A DNA stretch of 45,127 bases from a virus. Lineage: Duplodnaviria; Heunggongvirae; Uroviricota; Caudoviricetes. The translations under genes and the position numbers were made by a program. The stretch is from positions 1 through 45,127 of the IMG/VR virus record IMGVR_UViG_2778261231_000002. The stretch is one strand, 5' to 3'. Shown here piece by piece: positions 5,661 to 45,127 of the stretch. The notes under the pieces were generated by a model that searched no databases, was not told the DNA's origin, and saw only the letters and a program-made list of their open reading frames with translations. Positions within the stretch are counted from its first letter, which is position 1; each line of letters begins with the position of its first letter.

Positions 5661-6707
5661 TCACTCTGGTTCGCTGGGGAATATATTTATCAATTGCCCT
5701 GTTGAAATGTGCCCATTTTCTACAACCTCTAGGTATGAAATTTCAACAGTTGATTCTTTGGCTACAGCATTCAAAAACTCAAGAAGCTCATCAGTAGATG
5801 TTATGTCGGCTGAGGTTTTTATGGTGAAAGATTCACCATTTGAAACCCTTATGACGTCAATATTTATGTCCTGATTTGTTTCTCCCGAGCGACGAACGCC
5901 CGTGACATAAAAGTTATCTCTTCTAGTTTCCTTTTTTCGATCAATTGATTGTCTTTGGTTTAAGGTATTCAACTGTTCTCTATTTACCACTCTCTGACCA
6001 ATTGTTACCCTCTCAACTGACGAGTCTTGAGCAAGCTTTTTAAGCAACTTGCTTTTACCATCCTCGCCGTGAGCCAGAACCTCTCTGCTAATGTTTGTTT
6101 GACCGCTAATCAACAACTTGAGCACATTGTCTTGTGCTTCGTTTACCGCTTTGGTGCTTTTTTCCACCAATTGCACCTGAGAATCTTGGTCATGTCGCTG
6201 TGTTTCGTAGTACTCACTGATCCACTTATAGCCTACCGTGCTGGCAGCTAAGACGATAGCGGCGACGGCGCATAGTGCTTGCCTTCCTGTCATTTTGCCT
6301 ATCGCTTGAGTAAACACTGTCACCACTCCGTTTACAATCGGATCTGAGTCACCATCCGCTTGGCTTGAGCCTTCGCTTATTCGGTAGACAATATCCAGCA
6401 AACCTTTCTCTGCATCTTTTAGCTTCTGCCGATTATGAGTGCTGTGACTGACTACCGTAAATGCTTTTTGTATTTCATGCGTAAGCTCTGCCATACCAAA
6501 AAGCATTGACGCAGTCAATGAAGAATTATATCTATTTGGATCGCCTTTTACATTAATATTGATCTTTGGCCATCCACTGAAAACTACGTTAGGGAATGTG
6601 AAGTCGCTTGAGTCGATATCCTTCCTTCCGAGCATTTCCGTTACAAAAGATACAAAGTCGTCTTCTGACTTGATAACATATTGCGCAGGTTGATCAATCG
6701 CTGACAT
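5661..6707 (-). CDS. uncharacterized membrane-anchored protein in rexAB-equivalent position
   Basis: 348-aa ORF 76 bp downstream of cI on same strand; hydrophobic segment LCAVAAIVLAASTVGY; AT-rich. Confidence 0.6.
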   Translation of the reverse strand: MSAIDQPAQYVIKSEDDFVSFVTEMLGRKDIDSSDFTFPNVVFSGWPKININVKGDPNRYNSSLTASMLFGMAELTHEIQKAFTVVSHSTHNRQKLKDAEKGLLDIVYRISEGSSQADGDSDPIVNGVVTVFTQAIGKMTGRQALCAVAAIVLAASTVGYKWISEYYETQRHDQDSQVQLVEKSTKAVNEAQDNVLKLLISGQTNISREVLAHGEDGKSKLLKKLAQDSSVERVTIGQRVVNREQLNTLNQRQSIDRKKETRRDNFYVTGVRRSGETNQDINIDVIRVSNGESFTIKTSADITSTDELLEFLNAVAKESTVEISYLEVVENGHISTGQLINIFPSEPE

Positions 6708-6783: not shown

Positions 6784-7488
6784 TCACGAACTTTTCAGCC
6801 ACTCCCTTGCCTCGATGTCATCCAGATGGCGAGATTGCTTCAGAATACCAGCCACATACTCCACCTTTGCTACTTGATGATAAGGCAACGTTATTGGCCT
6901 GTGGTCTTGGTTGATGCTTGTAAATTGGTATTCTCCATCTCTGTCATAGCCAAGAACCTTAATCATGTTGTGTCCTTCAACGGTTCTGACAAACACCTCA
7001 TCACCCGGGAATACTTTGGTGTTAGGCTCAATGAGTACATATTCTCCTGATTTTATTCTAGGCCACATGCTGTCTCCTTTCACACGAAGGCCAAAGGCAT
7101 CTGGATCATCGCTATAAATTTTGAGCCACCCATCGCGCTCTTCGGTCATCTCGATGGCACCATCAACACCAAGAATTGCCTCACCAACCACGCGCACTAA
7201 CCCTTTTCTTACCTGACCGACAAAAGTTAAAGAATCTGAGCATGATGCAATTGGTGTTACATCATGTACCAAATCAAGCCACCCATTAGGTAACCCAAGT
7301 GCGGCTTCAAATTTTCTTGCTAGTTTATCCCCTATGTTTCGAGTGCTTTTTTCACCGGAGACTTGCGTGAGTTGAGAAGGGCTAACCCCAAGCTTATCGG
7401 CAAAGCTTGCATTAGTGTTACCCGCGATTTTTTTATGCTCATCTAGCAAAAACGCCAGATTCGATTTGCGAATATCTTTGTTTTCCAT
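6784..7488 (-). CDS. cI: CI-type repressor (HTH plus S24 LexA-like peptidase)
   Basis: N-terminal HTH; C-terminal GDSMWP with downstream Lys, typical autocleavage domain. Confidence 0.85.
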   Translation of the reverse strand: MENKDIRKSNLAFLLDEHKKIAGNTNASFADKLGVSPSQLTQVSGEKSTRNIGDKLARKFEAALGLPNGWLDLVHDVTPIASCSDSLTFVGQVRKGLVRVVGEAILGVDGAIEMTEERDGWLKIYSDDPDAFGLRVKGDSMWPRIKSGEYVLIEPNTKVFPGDEVFVRTVEGHNMIKVLGYDRDGEYQFTSINQDHRPITLPYHQVAKVEYVAGILKQSRHLDDIEAREWLKSS

Positions 7489-14371: not shown

Positions 14372-14446
14372 GGGTCAGTCGTATAAAGGTCATTACGGAA
14401 GGCTGTTAACCTTCTTATCGTGGTTCGAGTCCACGCTGTCCCGCCA
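14372..14446 (+). tRNA. tRNA-Asn (anticodon GTT), one acceptor mismatch
   Basis: Hand-folded cloverleaf: loop CTGTTAA, T-loop GGTTCGAGTCC, CCA end. Confidence 0.5.
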
Positions 14447-14451
14447 AACAT

Positions 14452-14527
14452 GCTGGTTTAGCTCCAATGGTAGAGCGGTCGCCTTGTAAGCGAATGGGTA
14501 GCGGTTCAAGTCCGTTAACCAGCACCA
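14452..14527 (+). tRNA. tRNA-Thr (anticodon TGT)
   Basis: 76-nt cloverleaf folded by hand: acceptor GCTGGTT/AACCAGC, D-stem GCTC/GAGC, loop CTTGTAA, CCA. Confidence 0.6.
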
Positions 14528-28545: not shown

Positions 28546-28986
28546 ATGGCAACTTATTCTTTTCTCGATGTAACCGCGTCGCTCACCGGGCCGACCGGCG
28601 TTATCGATCTTGGTCAGGGTTCTGCGAACTCTGAGGAAGGTATCACCCAGACCATGGGCGGCAACAAAAACACCATGACCATCGGTGCCGATGGCGAGGT
28701 GATGCACAGCCTGCACGCCGATAAGTCAGGCACCATTACGGTGACGCTACTCAAAACCTCCCCGGTGAATAAAAAGCTGTCTCTGGCGTATAACGCGCAA
28801 AGCCAGTCCTCTGCCACCTGGGGCAATAACGTGATCGTCATTCGCAACACGGCATCGGGTGATATTTCTACTGCGCGTTCGTGTGCATTCCAGAAACAGC
28901 CTGATTTCAATAACGCTAAAGAGGGCGGAACCGTCGCCTGGGTATTCGACTGCGGCAAGATTGACCAGCTTCTCGGGGAGTTTTAA
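28546..28986 (+). CDS. tail tube protein
   Basis: 146 aa after sheath. Confidence 0.6.
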   Translation: MATYSFLDVTASLTGPTGVIDLGQGSANSEEGITQTMGGNKNTMTIGADGEVMHSLHADKSGTITVTLLKTSPVNKKLSLAYNAQSQSSATWGNNVIVIRNTASGDISTARSCAFQKQPDFNNAKEGGTVAWVFDCGKIDQLLGEF

Positions 28987-28989
28987 CGC

Positions 28990-29415
28990 ATGGAATTCGA
29001 AATTAAAGGCGTGAAATATCGCACCGCAAAGCTCAGCGTTTTCGAACAGCTGAAGGTGTCCCGCAAGCTGTTGCCGGTTCTGGCCGGGATGGTTTCGGAC
29101 TTCCGGAGCGTTCAGGAGAAGATCAGCAGCAAAGACACCGAAGGCGCGATGGCTACCATCCTGCCAAAGATTGCCAATGCTGTGTCCGGTCTGAGTGATG
29201 GCGACGTGGACGCTATCCTGTTCCCCTGTCTTTCCGTTGTTTCACGCGAGCACATGAAAGGCTGGGTGCCGGTCTGCCAGCATGGCGAAATGGCGTTTGA
29301 CGATATCGACCTGCTTACCATGCTGCAACTGGTGGCGCGGGTGGTCGCCGACTCGCTGGGAAATTTTTTGCAAGGACTCCCTACCAGCGAGACGCCCACC
29401 CCGCCAGCGGAATAA
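28990..29415 (+). CDS. tail assembly chaperone
   Basis: Position between tube and tape measure; -1 frame stays open 29367-29603. Confidence 0.5.
   Translation: MEFEIKGVKYRTAKLSVFEQLKVSRKLLPVLAGMVSDFRSVQEKISSKDTEGAMATILPKIANAVSGLSDGDVDAILFPCLSVVSREHMKGWVPVCQHGEMAFDDIDLLTMLQLVARVVADSLGNFLQGLPTSETPTPPAE
29364..29370 (+). other. candidate -1 frameshift slippery run T TTT TTG
   Basis: In-frame heptamer near chaperone 3' end; -1 frame adds ~78 codons ending at 29601-29603. Confidence 0.4.
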
Positions 29416-29592
29416 CCTTCAACAGCCTGCCGGGCGGTGAAGATTTTATTCTTCGCCCGGCGCTTGCCTTCCATATTGACCAGAAAGACCTTAACAGCGG
29501 TGCGGTAGACCTTTGCCGCATCGCGCTTCTCAATGACTACCTCGACATGCGCGAGGATAACGACGCCCGGGTAGATAAATGGAGAGCGGCCA

Positions 29593-39249: not shown

Positions 39250-39474
39250 CATCCGGCGCACAGGACAAAACTGATACGCACAAAGCCTTGCACTGGATTG
39301 CAAGGCTTTGTGCTCTTCTGTGAATGTGTGGCTATATGTTTGAAGATCGTTGTGCCGTATTTGTGACATATATATGGCAACATCATGCATCAACTTTCTG
39401 TTTGTGCCATCAACTATAGCTTAGTGAATGCGGTTAATGCTTGCTAAAACAGATAGTTATGATTGGTGCTACAG

Positions 39475-39520
39475 ATTCGTAATGCGAAGGTCGTAGGTTC
39501 GACTCCTATTATCGGCACCA
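39475..39520 (+). other. att core: 46-bp 3' end of tRNA-Thr (thrW-like), not a full tRNA
   Basis: Anticodon loop TTCGTAA onward, T-arm GGTTCGACTCC, acceptor TATCGGC+A+CCA; no matching 5' half upstream. Confidence 0.55.
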
Positions 39521-39534
39521 TTAAAATCAATAAG

Positions 39535-40698
39535 TTACACATCATTAGTACCTTCCTTATTTTTTGACTGGGACAAATTTGGGACCGATGGGTTCAGGAT
39601 CGAGTCTATTTGCCGTGCGTGTTCGGTAAGGTGATTAGGTGCAAGGTGAGCATATCGACGAACCATTTCGATAGACTCCCAGCCTCCCATTTCCTGTAAA
39701 ACTGACAACGGGACTCCGGCTTGAACCAGCCAACTTGCCCAGGTGTGTCTCAAGTCGTGAAATCTGAAATCATCAATACCAGCCCGTCTCAGCGCCGCTT
39801 TCCAGGCTGTGTTTGCGTCATACCGCATCTTCCTTACTGTTGGCGCTTTCGTTCCGTCTGGTTTGGTACAGCTTTCCTTGTACACAAATACCCAACGGTG
39901 ATGATTCCCGATTTGTTTTTTCAATACGCGACATGCAGTATCATTCAGCGCAACGCCAATTGCGCGGTTTGATTTACTCTCTTCCGGGTTTATCCATGCC
40001 ACCCGGCGCTGCATATCTATTTGTTGCCATTCAAGGTTGATGATGTTCGAGCGTCTTAAGCCTGTTGCCAGTGCAAATTCAACAACAGACTTTAATGGCT
40101 CCGGACATTCATCAATCAGCCTTTGTGCTTCATGGGGCTCCAGCCAGCGGATCCGTTTATTCTTTGGTTGAGGCACTTTAATAATTGGTGCCTTATCCAG
40201 CATTTTCCATTCACGCTCTGCGGCTCTTAGTAGGGCCTTTATAAATGAAAGATGCGTAGCCTTCGTTGCAACGGACGCTGGTTTTGGCGTGTATTCTGGA
40301 ACAGGTTTCCCTTTTTTTCTGCATGCTTCTGCCCTGAGTTTCCAGTTTTCCTCATGACGCCGGTTCGTCATTTTCTGCATTGCTGAATAAATTTTTGATT
40401 CAGTAATGTCTCTTAGTTGCATTCCTGCGAAATGTTGAAGCCAGAATCCGATCCGGCTTTTGTCATCGTCCAGTGATTTTTTATGTGCTTTCTCTTCAAG
40501 CCACCTGACACACGCTTCCTCGAACGTTATATCAGGTATTTCACCAAGTTTGCTGACCCGCCATGCTTCAGCCTTTAGCTTGTCATGGAGTTCTGTCGCC
40601 TGCCTTTTGTCCTTTGTTCCAAGAGACTGTTTAAATCTTTTACCGTTCGGCAATGTGAAACTGGCGTACCATATTTCACCTCTGCGGAAGAGTGACAT
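39535..40698 (-). CDS. int: tyrosine integrase (P22 Int-like)
   Basis: 387 aa; catalytic R...HDLRHTWAS...Y; convergent on tRNA fragment. Confidence 0.9.
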
Positions 40699-40925
40699 TT
40701 TCTTTCCTCTGTTATGCCATCACCCGCGCTCACCTGGACAGTATGCAGCGGAGACTGAAGAGCCGCAATGCAGGCTTGTCGTGTTGTGAGGTAAGGAGAT
40801 TTATTCTTAGTGGGATCTTTGCGTGTTGCCTGAAGACGCCCTGTGCGTATCCAGTTAATGGCAGTCGGTCTGGATATCTTGAGAAAATGACAGGCCTCAT
40901 CGAGTGTGAGGCTGTATGGCTCCAT
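40575..40925 (-). CDS. xis: excisionase (P22 Xis-like)
   Basis: [36 protein letters not shown]; overlaps int start. Confidence 0.7.
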
Positions 40926-41230
40926 TATTTCACCTCTTGCTGTGACATTGTTGAAAAATGGATACCAGCTCGTTGCTGCCAGACGATCCAACCGAGAGTC
41001 ATATCCCATGCCATGTATTCGTTATCGCCGTTTTTTGCTCTCCGACGATCTACTAAGTCACCGAAACGCTTTTCCATGAATAATTCATAAGCTTCGCGTT
41101 CATCTGGTTCTACTTCCAGAGATAGGAGTGCGATTTCATAAGCACGGCGCTCAATATCGTCTCGCACGTCAAGGCTGCTGATACGCTCTTTAATTTCTTT
41201 AATCAGTTCTTTGTCGGTAAAAGTGGTCAT
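40925..41230 (-). CDS. hypothetical early protein
   Basis: 101-aa acidic ORF. Confidence 0.4.
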   Translation of the reverse strand: MTTFTDKELIKEIKERISSLDVRDDIERRAYEIALLSLEVEPDEREAYELFMEKRFGDLVDRRRAKNGDNEYMAWDMTLGWIVWQQRAGIHFSTMSQQEVK

Positions 41231-41592
41231 TATGCTCCAGCCTCCGGTGCTTTTGGCATTACTGCCCAGTGAGTGATATTGACGTTTTCAAGGTCCCCGA
41301 CCTGAAATGTCCACTGCCATTCTCCGGTTTCTTTTTGTCCCCAGGTGTACCAGAGAGAACGCCAGCCAATTAGCCAGCCTTCTCCGTTAGCATCGAATAA
41401 CAAAACACTTTCATTTGCTGGTGGCAGTTCAGTTGACACTGGTATTACTTTGTTTTCCTGTGCTGCACATTTAGCTTCAAGCGCATCGAATTTACGCACC
41501 AGGTATTCAGCATCTGTTTCATTTACTTTCAGATCTCGCGGTACACATCTCCCACGAAGAAACCCTTCCATTTCGAAAACATTCATGCGCAT
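41230..41592 (-). CDS. hypothetical early protein
   Basis: 120-aa Trp-rich ORF. Confidence 0.4.
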   Translation of the reverse strand: MRMNVFEMEGFLRGRCVPRDLKVNETDAEYLVRKFDALEAKCAAQENKVIPVSTELPPANESVLLFDANGEGWLIGWRSLWYTWGQKETGEWQWTFQVGDLENVNITHWAVMPKAPEAGA

Positions 41593-42146
41593 TTGCGTAA
41601 CTCCGATAACTCGTTAAAGCGTTCCATAAACATCCCGTAGGCATGGCCCGGTGCCAGTGGAATCACGTTGAACATCTCTGTTGCCGGGATACCTTCCAGT
41701 ACAGGCCAGAAAGAGCCATCATCAAGCCCGAGATCGCGGCGTTCGGTTGCCAGCATGATGAGATCGGCATATTTCACGGGCGTACTCATAACTGGGGGTA
41801 ACCCGTATTTCTCACGGATTACGGCGTCTATTTTTTCTTCCATTTGTTTATAGTCAGGAAGAAGGCGTTTCAGTGGTGCGGGGATGTCCTGGCAATATGC
41901 TTCTGTTGCATCATGCATTAAAGCTTCAAAAGCAAATTCCTGCGGCACCAGCTGGCTGCAAAGCACCGCATGTTGGGCGACACTGTAGAAGTGTGAAAGA
42001 TGTCCTGCAAAGCGACAGATATTTGAAAGGGAAACCGCGATATCGTTAATAACGATGTCGTCTTTATTTATCCTGTCATAATAAAAATGCTTCCCGGAAA
42101 AAGTTTTAATAAATGACATTTTGTTCTCCACGTATATGCGCTGCAC
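41583..42146 (-). CDS. HD-domain phosphohydrolase (YfdR-like)
   Basis: H...HD motif (MHDATEAY). Confidence 0.5.
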   Translation of the reverse strand: MQRIYVENKMSFIKTFSGKHFYYDRINKDDIVINDIAVSLSNICRFAGHLSHFYSVAQHAVLCSQLVPQEFAFEALMHDATEAYCQDIPAPLKRLLPDYKQMEEKIDAVIREKYGLPPVMSTPVKYADLIMLATERRDLGLDDGSFWPVLEGIPATEMFNVIPLAPGHAYGMFMERFNELSELRKCA

Positions 42147-42216
42147 CGCGCTGAATTCCGGTAAAAGGAAGCCCTCACCGTCCGGCGATTATTGAGTCAA
42201 TTACATTTCCATAAAT

Positions 42217-42600
42217 GCCCCCGTAGGGGCGGTTAGTTTCTCCACAAAACAGAGAAGAACACCTGCGGTGGCAGCCGCCCGGATGGATTGGGTTATGAGC
42301 CCGTCGTCCGGTGATGCTCTTCTCTGTTTTGTAAAAAGAGCGGTACCAGCCGGAAGCAAGTGTACAAACTGGTACCGCGAGGACTACACACAGCATAAAG
42401 TTGTGGTGCCGGGTGCCTCCCGGTGCCTGGCGAAGGTTGCACACCAGGCGGGTGGGTATCCACAGAAGGTCGACTGTCAGCCTCAACCTTAACCCGCGTG
42501 CGCTGAGCCGCATTCACCACAACGCTAAGGATTCTCTCTGGTTGAAAATACTTAGCTGTTATGTGCCTGCTTTTAGCCACATCAGGCGAGGTGGACCTAG
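42217..42600. ncRNA. candidate structured non-coding region (strand and function unknown)
   Basis: GC-rich, no credible ORF; 15-bp perfect inverted repeat 42244-42258/42318-42332, 10-bp inverted repeat 42340-42349/42369-42378, hairpin 42217-42230. Confidence 0.25.
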
Positions 42601-42663
42601 TTATTCCCCAACAACAAGGATTCGGTTAATCTGGTTATCCCCAACAACGCAAAAGGAAAAGAA

Positions 42664-43098
42664 ATGTCCGGTAATATCTATACGCTGTACAAATCCCACT
42701 GTGAAAATGTTGGAAAGTATCGGGGCATTGAAATCAGTGGGGTAGTGTCATCAGTCGAAATAAGCAAAGTTGAATCAAGGGCAACATTACTTACTCTTTT
42801 GGACCTTGTCTTACATGAGCACCGGAAGAAATTCGGCACTCCCTATAATCAGTTGAATGGGAAAAAGGCTCTGGTTCACCTTATTCTGATGAAGCATCAC
42901 TGGATGCCAAAACAGATTAATGAGATGAAATTTGATGAACTTCTTCTTTCAATTCAGGATGAACTCACACTTGATAAAATAAGCGTAACCGCCCAGAAAT
43001 TTTTAGATTATCGAGACTGGAGATCACAAATTCATCATTTTGATGATTTTGACGAAAATGAATGGGATCCTAATTTGTCTGCACAATATCTAAAGTAA
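42664..43098 (+). CDS. hypothetical protein, AT-rich, opposite to element B early genes
   Basis: 144-aa ORF; direct repeats TCCCCAACAAC at 42605 and 42638 upstream. Confidence 0.45.
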   Translation: MSGNIYTLYKSHCENVGKYRGIEISGVVSSVEISKVESRATLLTLLDLVLHEHRKKFGTPYNQLNGKKALVHLILMKHHWMPKQINEMKFDELLLSIQDELTLDKISVTAQKFLDYRDWRSQIHHFDDFDENEWDPNLSAQYLK

Positions 43099-43291
43099 CA
43101 TCCTGTGATAAAACCGTGATTTCCTGATCCAGTTTTTTTAAGGAGTCTATTGTTTCCTGTCGATAAGACAGCACTTCACGAAGCTGGTTTATAGCTGCCA
43201 GCTTCTTTGTCATCCACTCATAAATTTCCTCATCTGTGTAGCCAGGCGCGACGATTTTGGGTTCTGTTTTGTGCATTTCACATCTCCTCAA
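43070..43291 (-). CDS. hypothetical small protein
   Basis: 73-aa ORF convergent with 42664..43098. Confidence 0.3.
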   Translation of the reverse strand: MRRCEMHKTEPKIVAPGYTDEEIYEWMTKKLAAINQLREVLSYRQETIDSLKKLDQEITVLSQDVTLDIVQTN

Positions 43292-43477
43292 GTTATCAGT
43301 TACTTGTTGATGGGGACCAGATTGTTAAAGAGCTAAGCGTCCTGTAGGGCGCTTTTTTGTTGCTAACGAATCATCCTGGACTTCATATGCCCCAGGCGGC
43401 TACTTCGTGGGCGTCCTGCCTGTTCGTTGTTTCGCTTGGGTACATTATGTATCTCAAAGGTACATTGTCAAGTATAA

Positions 43478-43500
43478 AAAAACCTGCCGAAGCAGGTTCA
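43478..43500 (-). terminator. rho-independent terminator after repressor B
   Basis: Minus-strand hairpin CCTGCTTCGGCAGG then T7. Confidence 0.55.
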
Positions 43501-43510
43501 TAAACATTGA

Positions 43511-44185
43511 TTAGGCTTTGATTTTGTATCTTCTTGGTTTTCCTGAGAAAATCACTGTACCAATTATAGAGCAATTACCGTTGATCTTAATGTAAGGCTC
43601 AGGCCAGTTTGGGTTTAACGCTTTGAGATAACGCTGTGTCCCATCTTCTATCAACCTTTTGAAGGTGGTTTCACCTGTATCGTGCATCAATGCAATAACG
43701 TCGTCACCGTGGCAGGCAGGTACTTCAGGATCGACAAAAATCATGTCTCCCGGGCGGTACTCATCAATCATTGAATCACCTATCACCCGCAAGATATAAG
43801 TCATTTCCCCACAGGGTACAGGGCAGGGATACGTTTCTGCTGTGCTCAAATCAACCTCAGAATATCCAACTTCTTTCCATGCTCCGGCCTGTACCCATGA
43901 TATGACAGGGACTAATGTGATTTGTTTATTAGTGATTGAAACATCAGGTTTTTTTGTGATGTTCGTTGTCTGGTGTTCTTGATCGAGCCATCCGACAGGC
44001 AGGTCGAAACATTTTTCGATGTGTCGTGCCATGCTGTCACCGATATTTTTAGTAGCACCATCTCCCATAAACCTGCTGGTCTGGGTTGGCTCGCGATCAA
44101 TCATAGTGGCAAAGGAAGAATTCCCGCCAACACCATCTCTCAGTTTTCTGGCGTTAGACCGCCGGATGTCATGGATTGTTTTCAT
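43511..44185 (-). CDS. second CI-type repressor (HTH plus S24 peptidase)
   Basis: GDSM active-site motif; N-terminal HTH. Confidence 0.8.
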   Translation of the reverse strand: MKTIHDIRRSNARKLRDGVGGNSSFATMIDREPTQTSRFMGDGATKNIGDSMARHIEKCFDLPVGWLDQEHQTTNITKKPDVSITNKQITLVPVISWVQAGAWKEVGYSEVDLSTAETYPCPVPCGEMTYILRVIGDSMIDEYRPGDMIFVDPEVPACHGDDVIALMHDTGETTFKRLIEDGTQRYLKALNPNWPEPYIKINGNCSIIGTVIFSGKPRRYKIKA

Positions 44186-44200
44186 AACGAAATTAAAACC

Positions 44201-44273
44201 CTTGTACCGTTAAGGTACAAGTATCTTGAAGGTTCATTTCAATCATGTAATATGTACACCGGAGGTACATATT
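44201..44273. promoter_or_regulatory. operator palindromes between repressor B and cro-like gene
   Basis: CTTGTACC-GTTAA-GGTACAAG at 44201-44221; AATATGTAC-ACCGGAG-GTACATATT at 44249-44273. Confidence 0.5.
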
Positions 44274-44275
44274 GT

Positions 44276-44476
44276 ATGAAAGCGTATTGGGACTCTTTAA
44301 CCAAAGAACAGCAGGGCGAGTTGGCCGGAAAAGTTGGCTCAACACCTGGCTACTTACGGCTGGTTTTCAATGGCTATAAAAAAGCCAGTTTTGTGCTGGC
44401 TAAAAAACTTGAGCAATGCACGTCAGGTGCAATTACGAAATCTGACTTAAGACCGGATATCTATCCGAAAGATTAG
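44276..44476 (+). CDS. Cro-like HTH protein
   Basis: 66 aa; GGAGG RBS; divergent from repressor B. Confidence 0.55.
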   Translation: MKAYWDSLTKEQQGELAGKVGSTPGYLRLVFNGYKKASFVLAKKLEQCTSGAITKSDLRPDIYPKD

Positions 44477-44507
44477 CAGAACACTTTCAATTTTTAACCA
44501 CAGAACG

Positions 44508-45071
44508 ATGAGGCTAATCGTGGGTAAGCATCACTGGAAAATAGAAAAACAGCCTGAGTGGTACGTGAAAGCTGTCAGAAAAACTATCGCGGCGTTGCCG
44601 GGTGGTTACGCTGAAGCGGCTGACTGGCTCGATGTAACAGAAAACGCTTTATTCAACCGCCTTCGTGCAGATGGCGATCAGATTTTCCCGCTGGGATGGG
44701 CAATGGTTTTACAGCGTGCTGGTGGCACTCACTTCATTGCTGATGCTGTGGCGCAGTCTGCAAATGGCGTCTTTGTGTCTCTTCCTGACGTCGAGGATGT
44801 GGACAACGCCGATATCAACCAACGCCTGCTGGAGGTCATTGAACAGATCGGCAGTTATTCAAAACAGATTCGTTCAGCAATTGAAGACGGTGTAGTGGAA
44901 CCGCATGAGAAGACAGCAATTAACGACGAGTTGTACCTCTCAATTTCGAAGCTGCAGGAGCATGCAGCACTGGTCTACAAAATTTTTTGCATTTCAGAAA
45001 GTAATGACGCCCGCGAGTGTGCAGCTCCGGGCGCCGTGGCGTGTCGTGACTGTGGAGAAACTAACGCATGA
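44508..45071 (+). CDS. putative early regulatory protein (YdaT/CII-like)
   Basis: 187-aa ORF directly after cro-like gene. Confidence 0.35.
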   Translation: MRLIVGKHHWKIEKQPEWYVKAVRKTIAALPGGYAEAADWLDVTENALFNRLRADGDQIFPLGWAMVLQRAGGTHFIADAVAQSANGVFVSLPDVEDVDNADINQRLLEVIEQIGSYSKQIRSAIEDGVVEPHEKTAINDELYLSISKLQEHAALVYKIFCISESNDARECAAPGAVACRDCGETNA

Positions 45072-45127
45072 ACAGTTTAACAACACACTACCGTCGCTCG
45101 CAACTGATTGCGCTTCCTGTACCGGGT

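Follow-up and report, generated by a model that had tools for sequence, protein, structure and literature searches.

When a fragment of a tRNA gene has phage DNA on both sides, is it the attachment site of one phage or the boundary between two prophages? This question is raised by a stretch of 45,127 nucleotides (the window), which represents the whole of the draft contig NNZM01000038.1 of assembly GCA_002545375.1 and has such a fragment near its right end. The phage DNA to the left and to the right of the fragment is referred to as element A and element B, respectively. A search for further copies of the att core in the window returned none, and an array of prophages can therefore not be closed inside it. 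The outer att sites are located off the contig: an intact thrW gene, the integrase gene of element A (int(A)) and a third core are seen in analogous closed genomes, beyond the reach of this contig.

The thrW fragment and its flanking elements

The interval 39250-39534 is the exact intergenic gap between two stop codons, that of a tail fibre assembly gene and that of an integrase gene (Table 1). It contains a 46-nucleotide att core that matches the 3′ end of the E. coli K-12 tRNA-Thr(CGU) gene thrW at all 46 positions, and the second K-12 copy, ptwF, which is found at the far end of the cryptic prophage CP4-6, is likewise identical to the core of the window (46/46). Judged by this alignment, the agreement with one specific tRNA end is far beyond chance. 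The published attP, attL and attR core of phages SfI, SfII, SfV, SfX and P22 is the same letter for letter (PMC3636060). The core annotated in the SfI record coincides with that of the window, and the annotated P22 core, which is 23 nt long, corresponds to window positions 39482-39504. ARAGORN called no tRNA at the att site and an Rfam scan for a partial tRNA there gave nothing at E ≤ 1, which is consistent with a bare 3′ fragment of a tRNA gene. The 30 nt on the 5′ side of the core (..GTTATGATTGGTGCTACAG) bear no resemblance to the 5′ half of thrW (GCCGATATAGCTCAGTTGGTAGAGCAGCGC).

Element A has the gene order of an integrated prophage. An early-left operon on the minus strand, which includes genes for an Ea22-like protein and a Rad52-type recombinase, is followed by cI, replication genes, nin/Q, tRNA genes, and the lysis, terminase, head and contractile tail genes, after which come the baseplate, tail fibre and tail fibre assembly genes and, finally, the P arm of the att site. 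The early region resembles that of CurroJimenez, mEpX1 and HK75, the structural genes resemble those of Omnitron and SEN34, and the region of the tail fibre assembly gene is 98-100% identical in nucleotide sequence to its mEp213 counterpart. All visible genes, from the early-left operon to the tail fibre over 39.5 kb, are intact ORFs. The xis/int/attL end of the element would lie past the contig start; the sequence homologous to the window start is located 2.5-4 kb from the xis/int end in CurroJimenez. Element A is a lambdoid phage that has a myovirus tail and, like mEp213, an att of the CP4-6 type.

Several parts of element A have a distinct character. It contains a mosaic joint near the tail fibre genes: positions 38644-39474 are nearly identical to the siphovirus mEp213, whereas the adjoining baseplate and tail genes resemble those of Omnitron/SEN34-type myoviruses instead. 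Downstream of the Q/nin region, it carries tandem phage-borne genes for tRNA-Asn(GTT) and tRNA-Thr(TGT) (14372-14527), a pair that has no relation to the thrW fragment in the core and that occupies the same place in SfI, Sf6, ST64T and other phages (PMC3636060). Within the tail/baseplate cluster, a Fic-domain gene is paired with one for a PhdYeFM-like antitoxin (34037-34857) in what looks like a moron insert; the Fic ORF has weak matches to PADLOC candidate families, and a PADLOC scan of the neighbouring unannotated ORFs gave weak Fic-related matches only. An ORF of 348 amino acids (5661-6707, minus strand) that directly adjoins cI of element A, in a rex-like position, has no match in Pfam or PADLOC, and an exact-protein look-up with the Ea22-like ORF (282-896) found no such protein on record.

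On the other side of the core, the integrase gene of element B, int(B), runs convergent to the tRNA fragment. At the DNA level it does not differ from the integrase gene of SfIV (100% identity), and its protein product is 90% identical to P22 Int. The counterpart of the ORF next to it is annotated as xis or excisionase in the SfIV, SfV, SfI and P22 records. The region from int to cI is 98.7% identical to SfIV, the Pfam matches of the element include Phage_CP76, and the int, xis, cI, cro-like and cII-like genes are all intact ORFs. Element B is thus, as far as its gene content allows it to be classified, an SfIV/SfV-like lambdoid element with Int and Xis of the P22 type. These results bear out the initial annotation, which had described a 46-bp tRNA-Thr 3′ end that lacks its 5′ half, is preceded by the tail fibre assembly gene of element A and is followed by a convergent P22-like int/xis pair of element B: the fragment is identical to thrW throughout, both tRNA searches and the preceding bases agree on the missing half, and the proteins on either side belong to the expected families (Table 1).

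Table 1 Features of the window, with two related att arms
Feature	Position	Strand	Evidence or remark
Element A, mosaic lambdoid prophage in integrated gene order	1-39474	+	ORF map and phage similarity
cI-type repressor of element A (Peptidase_S24)	6784-7488	-	Pfam PF00717, E=3.8e-16
Tail fibre assembly gene, last gene of element A	38644-39249	+	Pfam Caudo_TAP, E=1e-27
P arm of CP4-6-type att (element A)	39250-39474	+	Phage attP match
Terminator-like hairpin after the late operon of element A	39278-39313	+	15 pairs, then T-rich tail
Three putative arm-type sites TGTG[C/A]C in the P arm	starts 39351, 39362, 39403	+	
46-nt att core, crossover region of the hybrid site	39475-39520	+	ATTCGTAATGCGAAGGTCGTAGGTTCGACTCCTATTATCGGCACCA
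P′ arm of P22/SfV-type att (element B)	39521-39600	+	Identical to SfI
Two putative arm-type sites TGGGAC in the P′ arm	starts 39569, 39580		Overlap the 3′ end of int
Integrase of element B, tyrosine, P22/SfV type	39535-40698	-	Pfam Phage_integrase, E=3e-48
Excisionase ORF of element B	40575-41009	-	Pfam HTH_17
Rest of visible element B, yfdT/yfdS/yfdR-like early-left genes onward	41010-45127		Extends to contig end
cI-type S24 repressor of element B	43511-44185	-	Pfam S24, E=1.5e-26
cro-like gene of element B	44276-44476	+	
cII-like gene of element B	44508-45071	+	
P′(A) arm			TGTGCCGTATTTGTGCCAT
Fossil P′ arm	K-12 NC_000913.3 297255-297330		Also beside the third core of NZ_CP136025.1

Homology and arm-type motifs on the two sides of the core

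The flanks of the fragment were compared with those of mEp213, SfI and P22 by alignments anchored at the core. To the left, identity to mEp213 is 98-100% over at least 700 bp, and identity to SfI and P22 is at background. To the right, about 1250-1300 bp are ~99% identical to SfI overall (94-100% per 50-nt bin) and 70-90% identical to P22, and the identity to mEp213 is 0.5-0.7, dropping to background. As each flank displays background identity (about 0.2-0.6) to the phage that matches the opposite flank, the homology breakpoint falls within the 46-nt core. The P arm and the core together (266 nt) are 100% identical to mEp213 and mEp043, where the matching feature is annotated as "prophage attachment site (type CP4-6)", and 95-98% identical to HK542, HK446, mEpX2 and HK75.

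Both arms carry short repeats that, by analogy with lambda and P22, are putative arm-type Int binding sites, an assignment that rests on repeated motifs at conserved positions. The P22 attP reportedly has three such sites in its P arm and two in its P′ arm. Counting P-arm offsets within the last 230 nt before the core (~106/117 and 159-171) and P′ offsets after the core, we find one repeat layout that is common to both att families: two adjacent sites and one proximal site in the P arm, and two sites in the P′ arm. In the window and in mEp213 alike, TGTG[C/A]C is found at P-arm positions 107, 118 and 159, and the P′ arm of mEp213 displays the same motif at positions 49 and 60. SfI and P22 carry TG[G/A]GAC at P-arm positions 106, 117 and 171 and at P′ positions 49 and 60, and the motif in the P′ arm of the window agrees with that of these two phages in both sequence and position. 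In mEp213, SfI and P22, a true attP therefore has one motif at equivalent positions on both arms, whereas the window combines the motif of the first family on its P arm with that of the second family on its P′ arm. The same division is seen in longer strings: the P arm of the window and the P′ arm of mEp213 have 16 consecutive nucleotides in common (the maximum in 300 shuffles is 11 nt), and the longest string common to the P arm and the P′ arm of the window itself is 7 nt, which is at chance level.

Examined family by family, the site is half of each. For the P22/SfV family, the core is the 3′ end of thrW and a convergent Int gene with xis is adjacent, but only the two P′ sites of TG[G/A]GAC are present and the P arm, which carries this motif in a complete attP, has none; the site is consequently attL-like for this family and is no attP. 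For the CP4-6 family, a P arm with TGTG[C/A]C repeats is contiguous with the thrW core, but the P′ arm and the cognate integrase of the mEp213 group are missing on the right, where the low identity to mEp213 given above is accompanied by the other motif, and the site is hence attR-like. What the window does contain is the middle junction of a tandem array, P(A)-core-P′(B), between two sets of prophage genes in integrated order. A quick test that distinguishes a true attP from a tandem junction is to see if the P arm and the P′ arm carry one and the same motif.

The motifs also bear on the counter-case that the initial annotation had named, in which the site would be the single attP of a circular or concatemeric phage genome. 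The contig would then be a complete or permuted phage of 45 kb. A genome of this size is plausible, and the succession of tail fibre, attP, int and xis is the normal vegetative order of the lambdoid phages mEp213, SfI and P22, but the arms in the window stem from different att families and, unlike in every true attP examined, differ in their motifs. Furthermore, the window encodes two S24 cI-type repressors, with two early regions, in prophage order, an arrangement that, as read from the gene map, fits two head-to-tail prophages. Closure of the contig into a circle would direct cII of element B head-on into the early-left operon of element A and would endow one phage with two immunity regions, and the contig ends, tested for overlap, have none of at least 11 nt. 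Finally, a junction identical to that of the window is found inside chromosomal arrays of closed genomes, as described below. The mismatched arms, the double immunity and the absence of terminal overlap largely refute the single attP, which we regard as very improbable.

The junction in closed E. coli genomes

A 281-nt query that spans the arm sites and the core was searched for in 5426 closed E. coli genomes, with at least 80% of the query covered. The junction in the order of the window is present in 48 of them, and the reverse-order junction P(B)-core-P′(A)-int(A), for which a synthetic query was used, in 44. The heterotypic pairing of CP4-6-type and P22/SfV-type elements is thus recurrent, occurring in ~1.7% of closed E. 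coli genomes with both orders counted.

Complete arrays could be followed in three closed genomes. In NZ_CP136025.1 (E. coli GDSC2BY4G), proA and an intact thrW are followed by int(A), xis, early genes, cI, replication genes, a P22-like virion module and a tailspike gene, then by the identical hybrid junction with int(B), xis, yfdT/S/R and cI, and then by a full lambda-like prophage, a third core and yagP/paoD; the exact 46-nt core is found three times. NZ_CP061764.1 (E. coli O19:H7 730V1) has the same layout, except that its element A is a myovirus related to that of the window, and the same int(B) adjoins it. NZ_CP138397.1 (strain 81EVA) contains a triple array at 1346500-1392500, which consists of a P22-like A, a complete 39-kb SfV/e14-like myovirus B, and a third member whose int(A) is truncated by an IS3-family element, and in which both kinds of hybrid junction are present. 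In these closed-genome analogues, int(A) is ~56% identical to the P22/SfV-type int(B), and two versions of int(A) are 62% identical to each other. No closed E. coli genome covers at least 80% of window positions 38700-40300 or of positions 36000-39474, and the closed collection has no genome in which exactly this tail fibre assembly gene is joined to int(B).

The closed genomes also allow us to judge whether the junction might be an assembly chimera, in which attR(A) was misjoined to attL(B) via the 46-nt core while the true order was thrW-B-A or B was located elsewhere. The window is a short-read draft contig, the core is repeated in genomes of this kind, and both orders occur naturally at similar frequency, all of which would suit such an error. 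The junction is nevertheless 100% identical over 281 nt in closed genomes, and its verbatim presence there marks it as a natural sequence; moreover, reads and k-mers are commonly longer than a repeat of 46 nt. SRR5336204_155, a contig from an independent k=31 assembly, matches window positions 28644-39504 without a difference and ends exactly 30 nt into the core, a break that would be expected if more than one sequence adjoins the core on its left in that sample. If both phages use thrW, they would be in tandem regardless, and a chimera would alter their order only. We consider a chimera improbable.

Two further observations concern the surroundings of the core. Rightward of the last core (ptwF), the chromosome by yagP contains a CP4-6-type P′ arm (…CTGTGCCGTATTTGTGCCATTG…) that has no integrase, and the apparent host side of attB is accordingly a relic of an old integration. 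In addition, the first letters of the phage phi458 record (OP434518.1) are those of the att core, and a further copy of the core at ~44268 is followed by ~540 nt; by its sequence, the record looks prophage-derived, cut at attL and continuing past attR into K-12 chromosomal sequence.

A genuine junction may still be a fossil, in which one or both partners are defective and the site no longer excises. The window displays 5.6 kb of element B and no integrase of element A, so that either element could be defective, and the thrW locus is rich in relics, among them the cryptic CP4-6 of K-12, which sits between two exact cores, the integrase-free P′ arm on the yagP side and the interrupted int(A) of strain 81EVA. 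The reading frames of the window speak for a different state, as the 39.5 kb of visible element A genes and the int, xis, cI, cro-like and cII-like genes of element B are uninterrupted, and int(B) is identical at the DNA level to that of SfIV, an isolated phage. We give the fossil very little credence, and it would bear on the present activity of the site and not on the origin of the junction.

Origin of the hybrid site and its relation to known systems

Combining these findings, we conclude that the interval 39250-39534 is very probably a hybrid att site, P(A)-core-P′(B), which represents attR of element A and attL of element B and arose by successive integrations at thrW. The initial annotation had proposed that attR of prophage A abuts attL of a second element at this site, and the hybrid arms, the two repressors and the arrays in closed genomes all agree with this proposal. 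They also refine it: the two elements belong to different att/Int lineages that have the thrW core in common, with the att of element A being of the CP4-6 type found in mEp213, HK542 and HK75.

We envisage that two different temperate phages used one 46-nt target in succession, each entering it through site-specific recombination by a tyrosine integrase. A resident prophage would offer two such targets, attL and attR, to any incoming phage with an integrase that recognises the core, because every 46-nt copy holds a complete core. Either element A integrated first and element B then entered attR(A), or element B came first and element A entered attL(B); the two routes leave indistinguishable sequences. 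In this genome, an intact thrW and int(A) would be expected leftward of the contig and a third core rightward of it. Excision of element A would proceed by recombination of attL(A) with the hybrid site, catalysed by Int(A)/Xis(A), and that of element B by recombination of the hybrid site with attR(B), catalysed by Int(B)/Xis(B). Each element should thus in principle still be separately excisable, and neither integrase would find a functional attP in the hybrid site itself.

A more general possibility, which we put forward tentatively and hold at somewhat less than even confidence, is that thrW arrays are built by at least two integrase lineages, ~56% identical, that act on one common core and read different arm sites. 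If so, one integrase would use a heterotypic middle junction solely as attR and the other solely as attL, neither could use it as attP, and the members of an array would excise independently. Co-excision of A and B by recombination of attL(A) with attR(B) would be disfavoured, as these outer sites bear arms for different integrases. With the two orders about equally common (48 versus 44 genomes), the locus would constitute a natural test bed for the divergence of arm sites under retained core specificity.

Tandem prophages at thrW are well documented and fairly common in E. coli and Shigella, and they are not conceptually new. The novelty of the present site is correspondingly low: it adds one more instance of phages stacking at the thrW hot spot. 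The result is mainly of use for prophage annotation. A prophage boundary can be placed where phage DNA encloses a tRNA fragment, and the 45-kb contig should therefore be split into two prophages.

The closest known system was obtained experimentally in S. flexneri, where SfI integrated into attL of a resident SfX at thrW and gave rise to tandem prophages (Sun et al. 2011, PMC3306764). The window resembles this tandem in that (i) the 46-nt core and the site by proA are the same, (ii) the second phage enters an att site of the resident, (iii) phage DNA is present on both sides of the middle junction, and (iv) the int/xis module of element B is that of the SfI-SfX system, with 98.6-100% nucleotide identity to SfI and SfIV. 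The two cases differ in the nature of the junction. SfI and SfX have the same Int/att type and form a complete attP-like site where they meet, whereas the junction of the window is heterotypic because its partners come from two att/Int lineages. In addition, unlike in the SfI-SfX tandem, no gtr serotype-conversion genes adjoin the site in the window.

Each half of the junction has its own relatives. The P arm and core are 95-100% identical to those of the CP4-6-type phages mEp213, mEp043, HK542, HK446, HK75 and mEpX2, and the tail fibre assembly gene upstream matches that of mEp213 as well; in these phages, however, the core is followed by a P′ arm with TGTGCC repeats and by their own integrase gene, whereas in the window it is followed by a P′ arm and an integrase gene of the P22 type. 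The latter half is like the P22/SfV module, with an identical core, two TGGGAC repeats at the same P′ offsets and an adjacent xis, but the P arm of that family, with its three TG[G/A]GAC sites and usually located after gtrA, is missing from the window. Repeated exact 46-nt cores that flank an element at thrW are also found in the thrW-CP4-6-ptwF region of K-12, which makes arrays the norm at this site. Unlike CP4-6 of K-12, which is a decayed island, the window contains two apparently intact lambdoid prophages.
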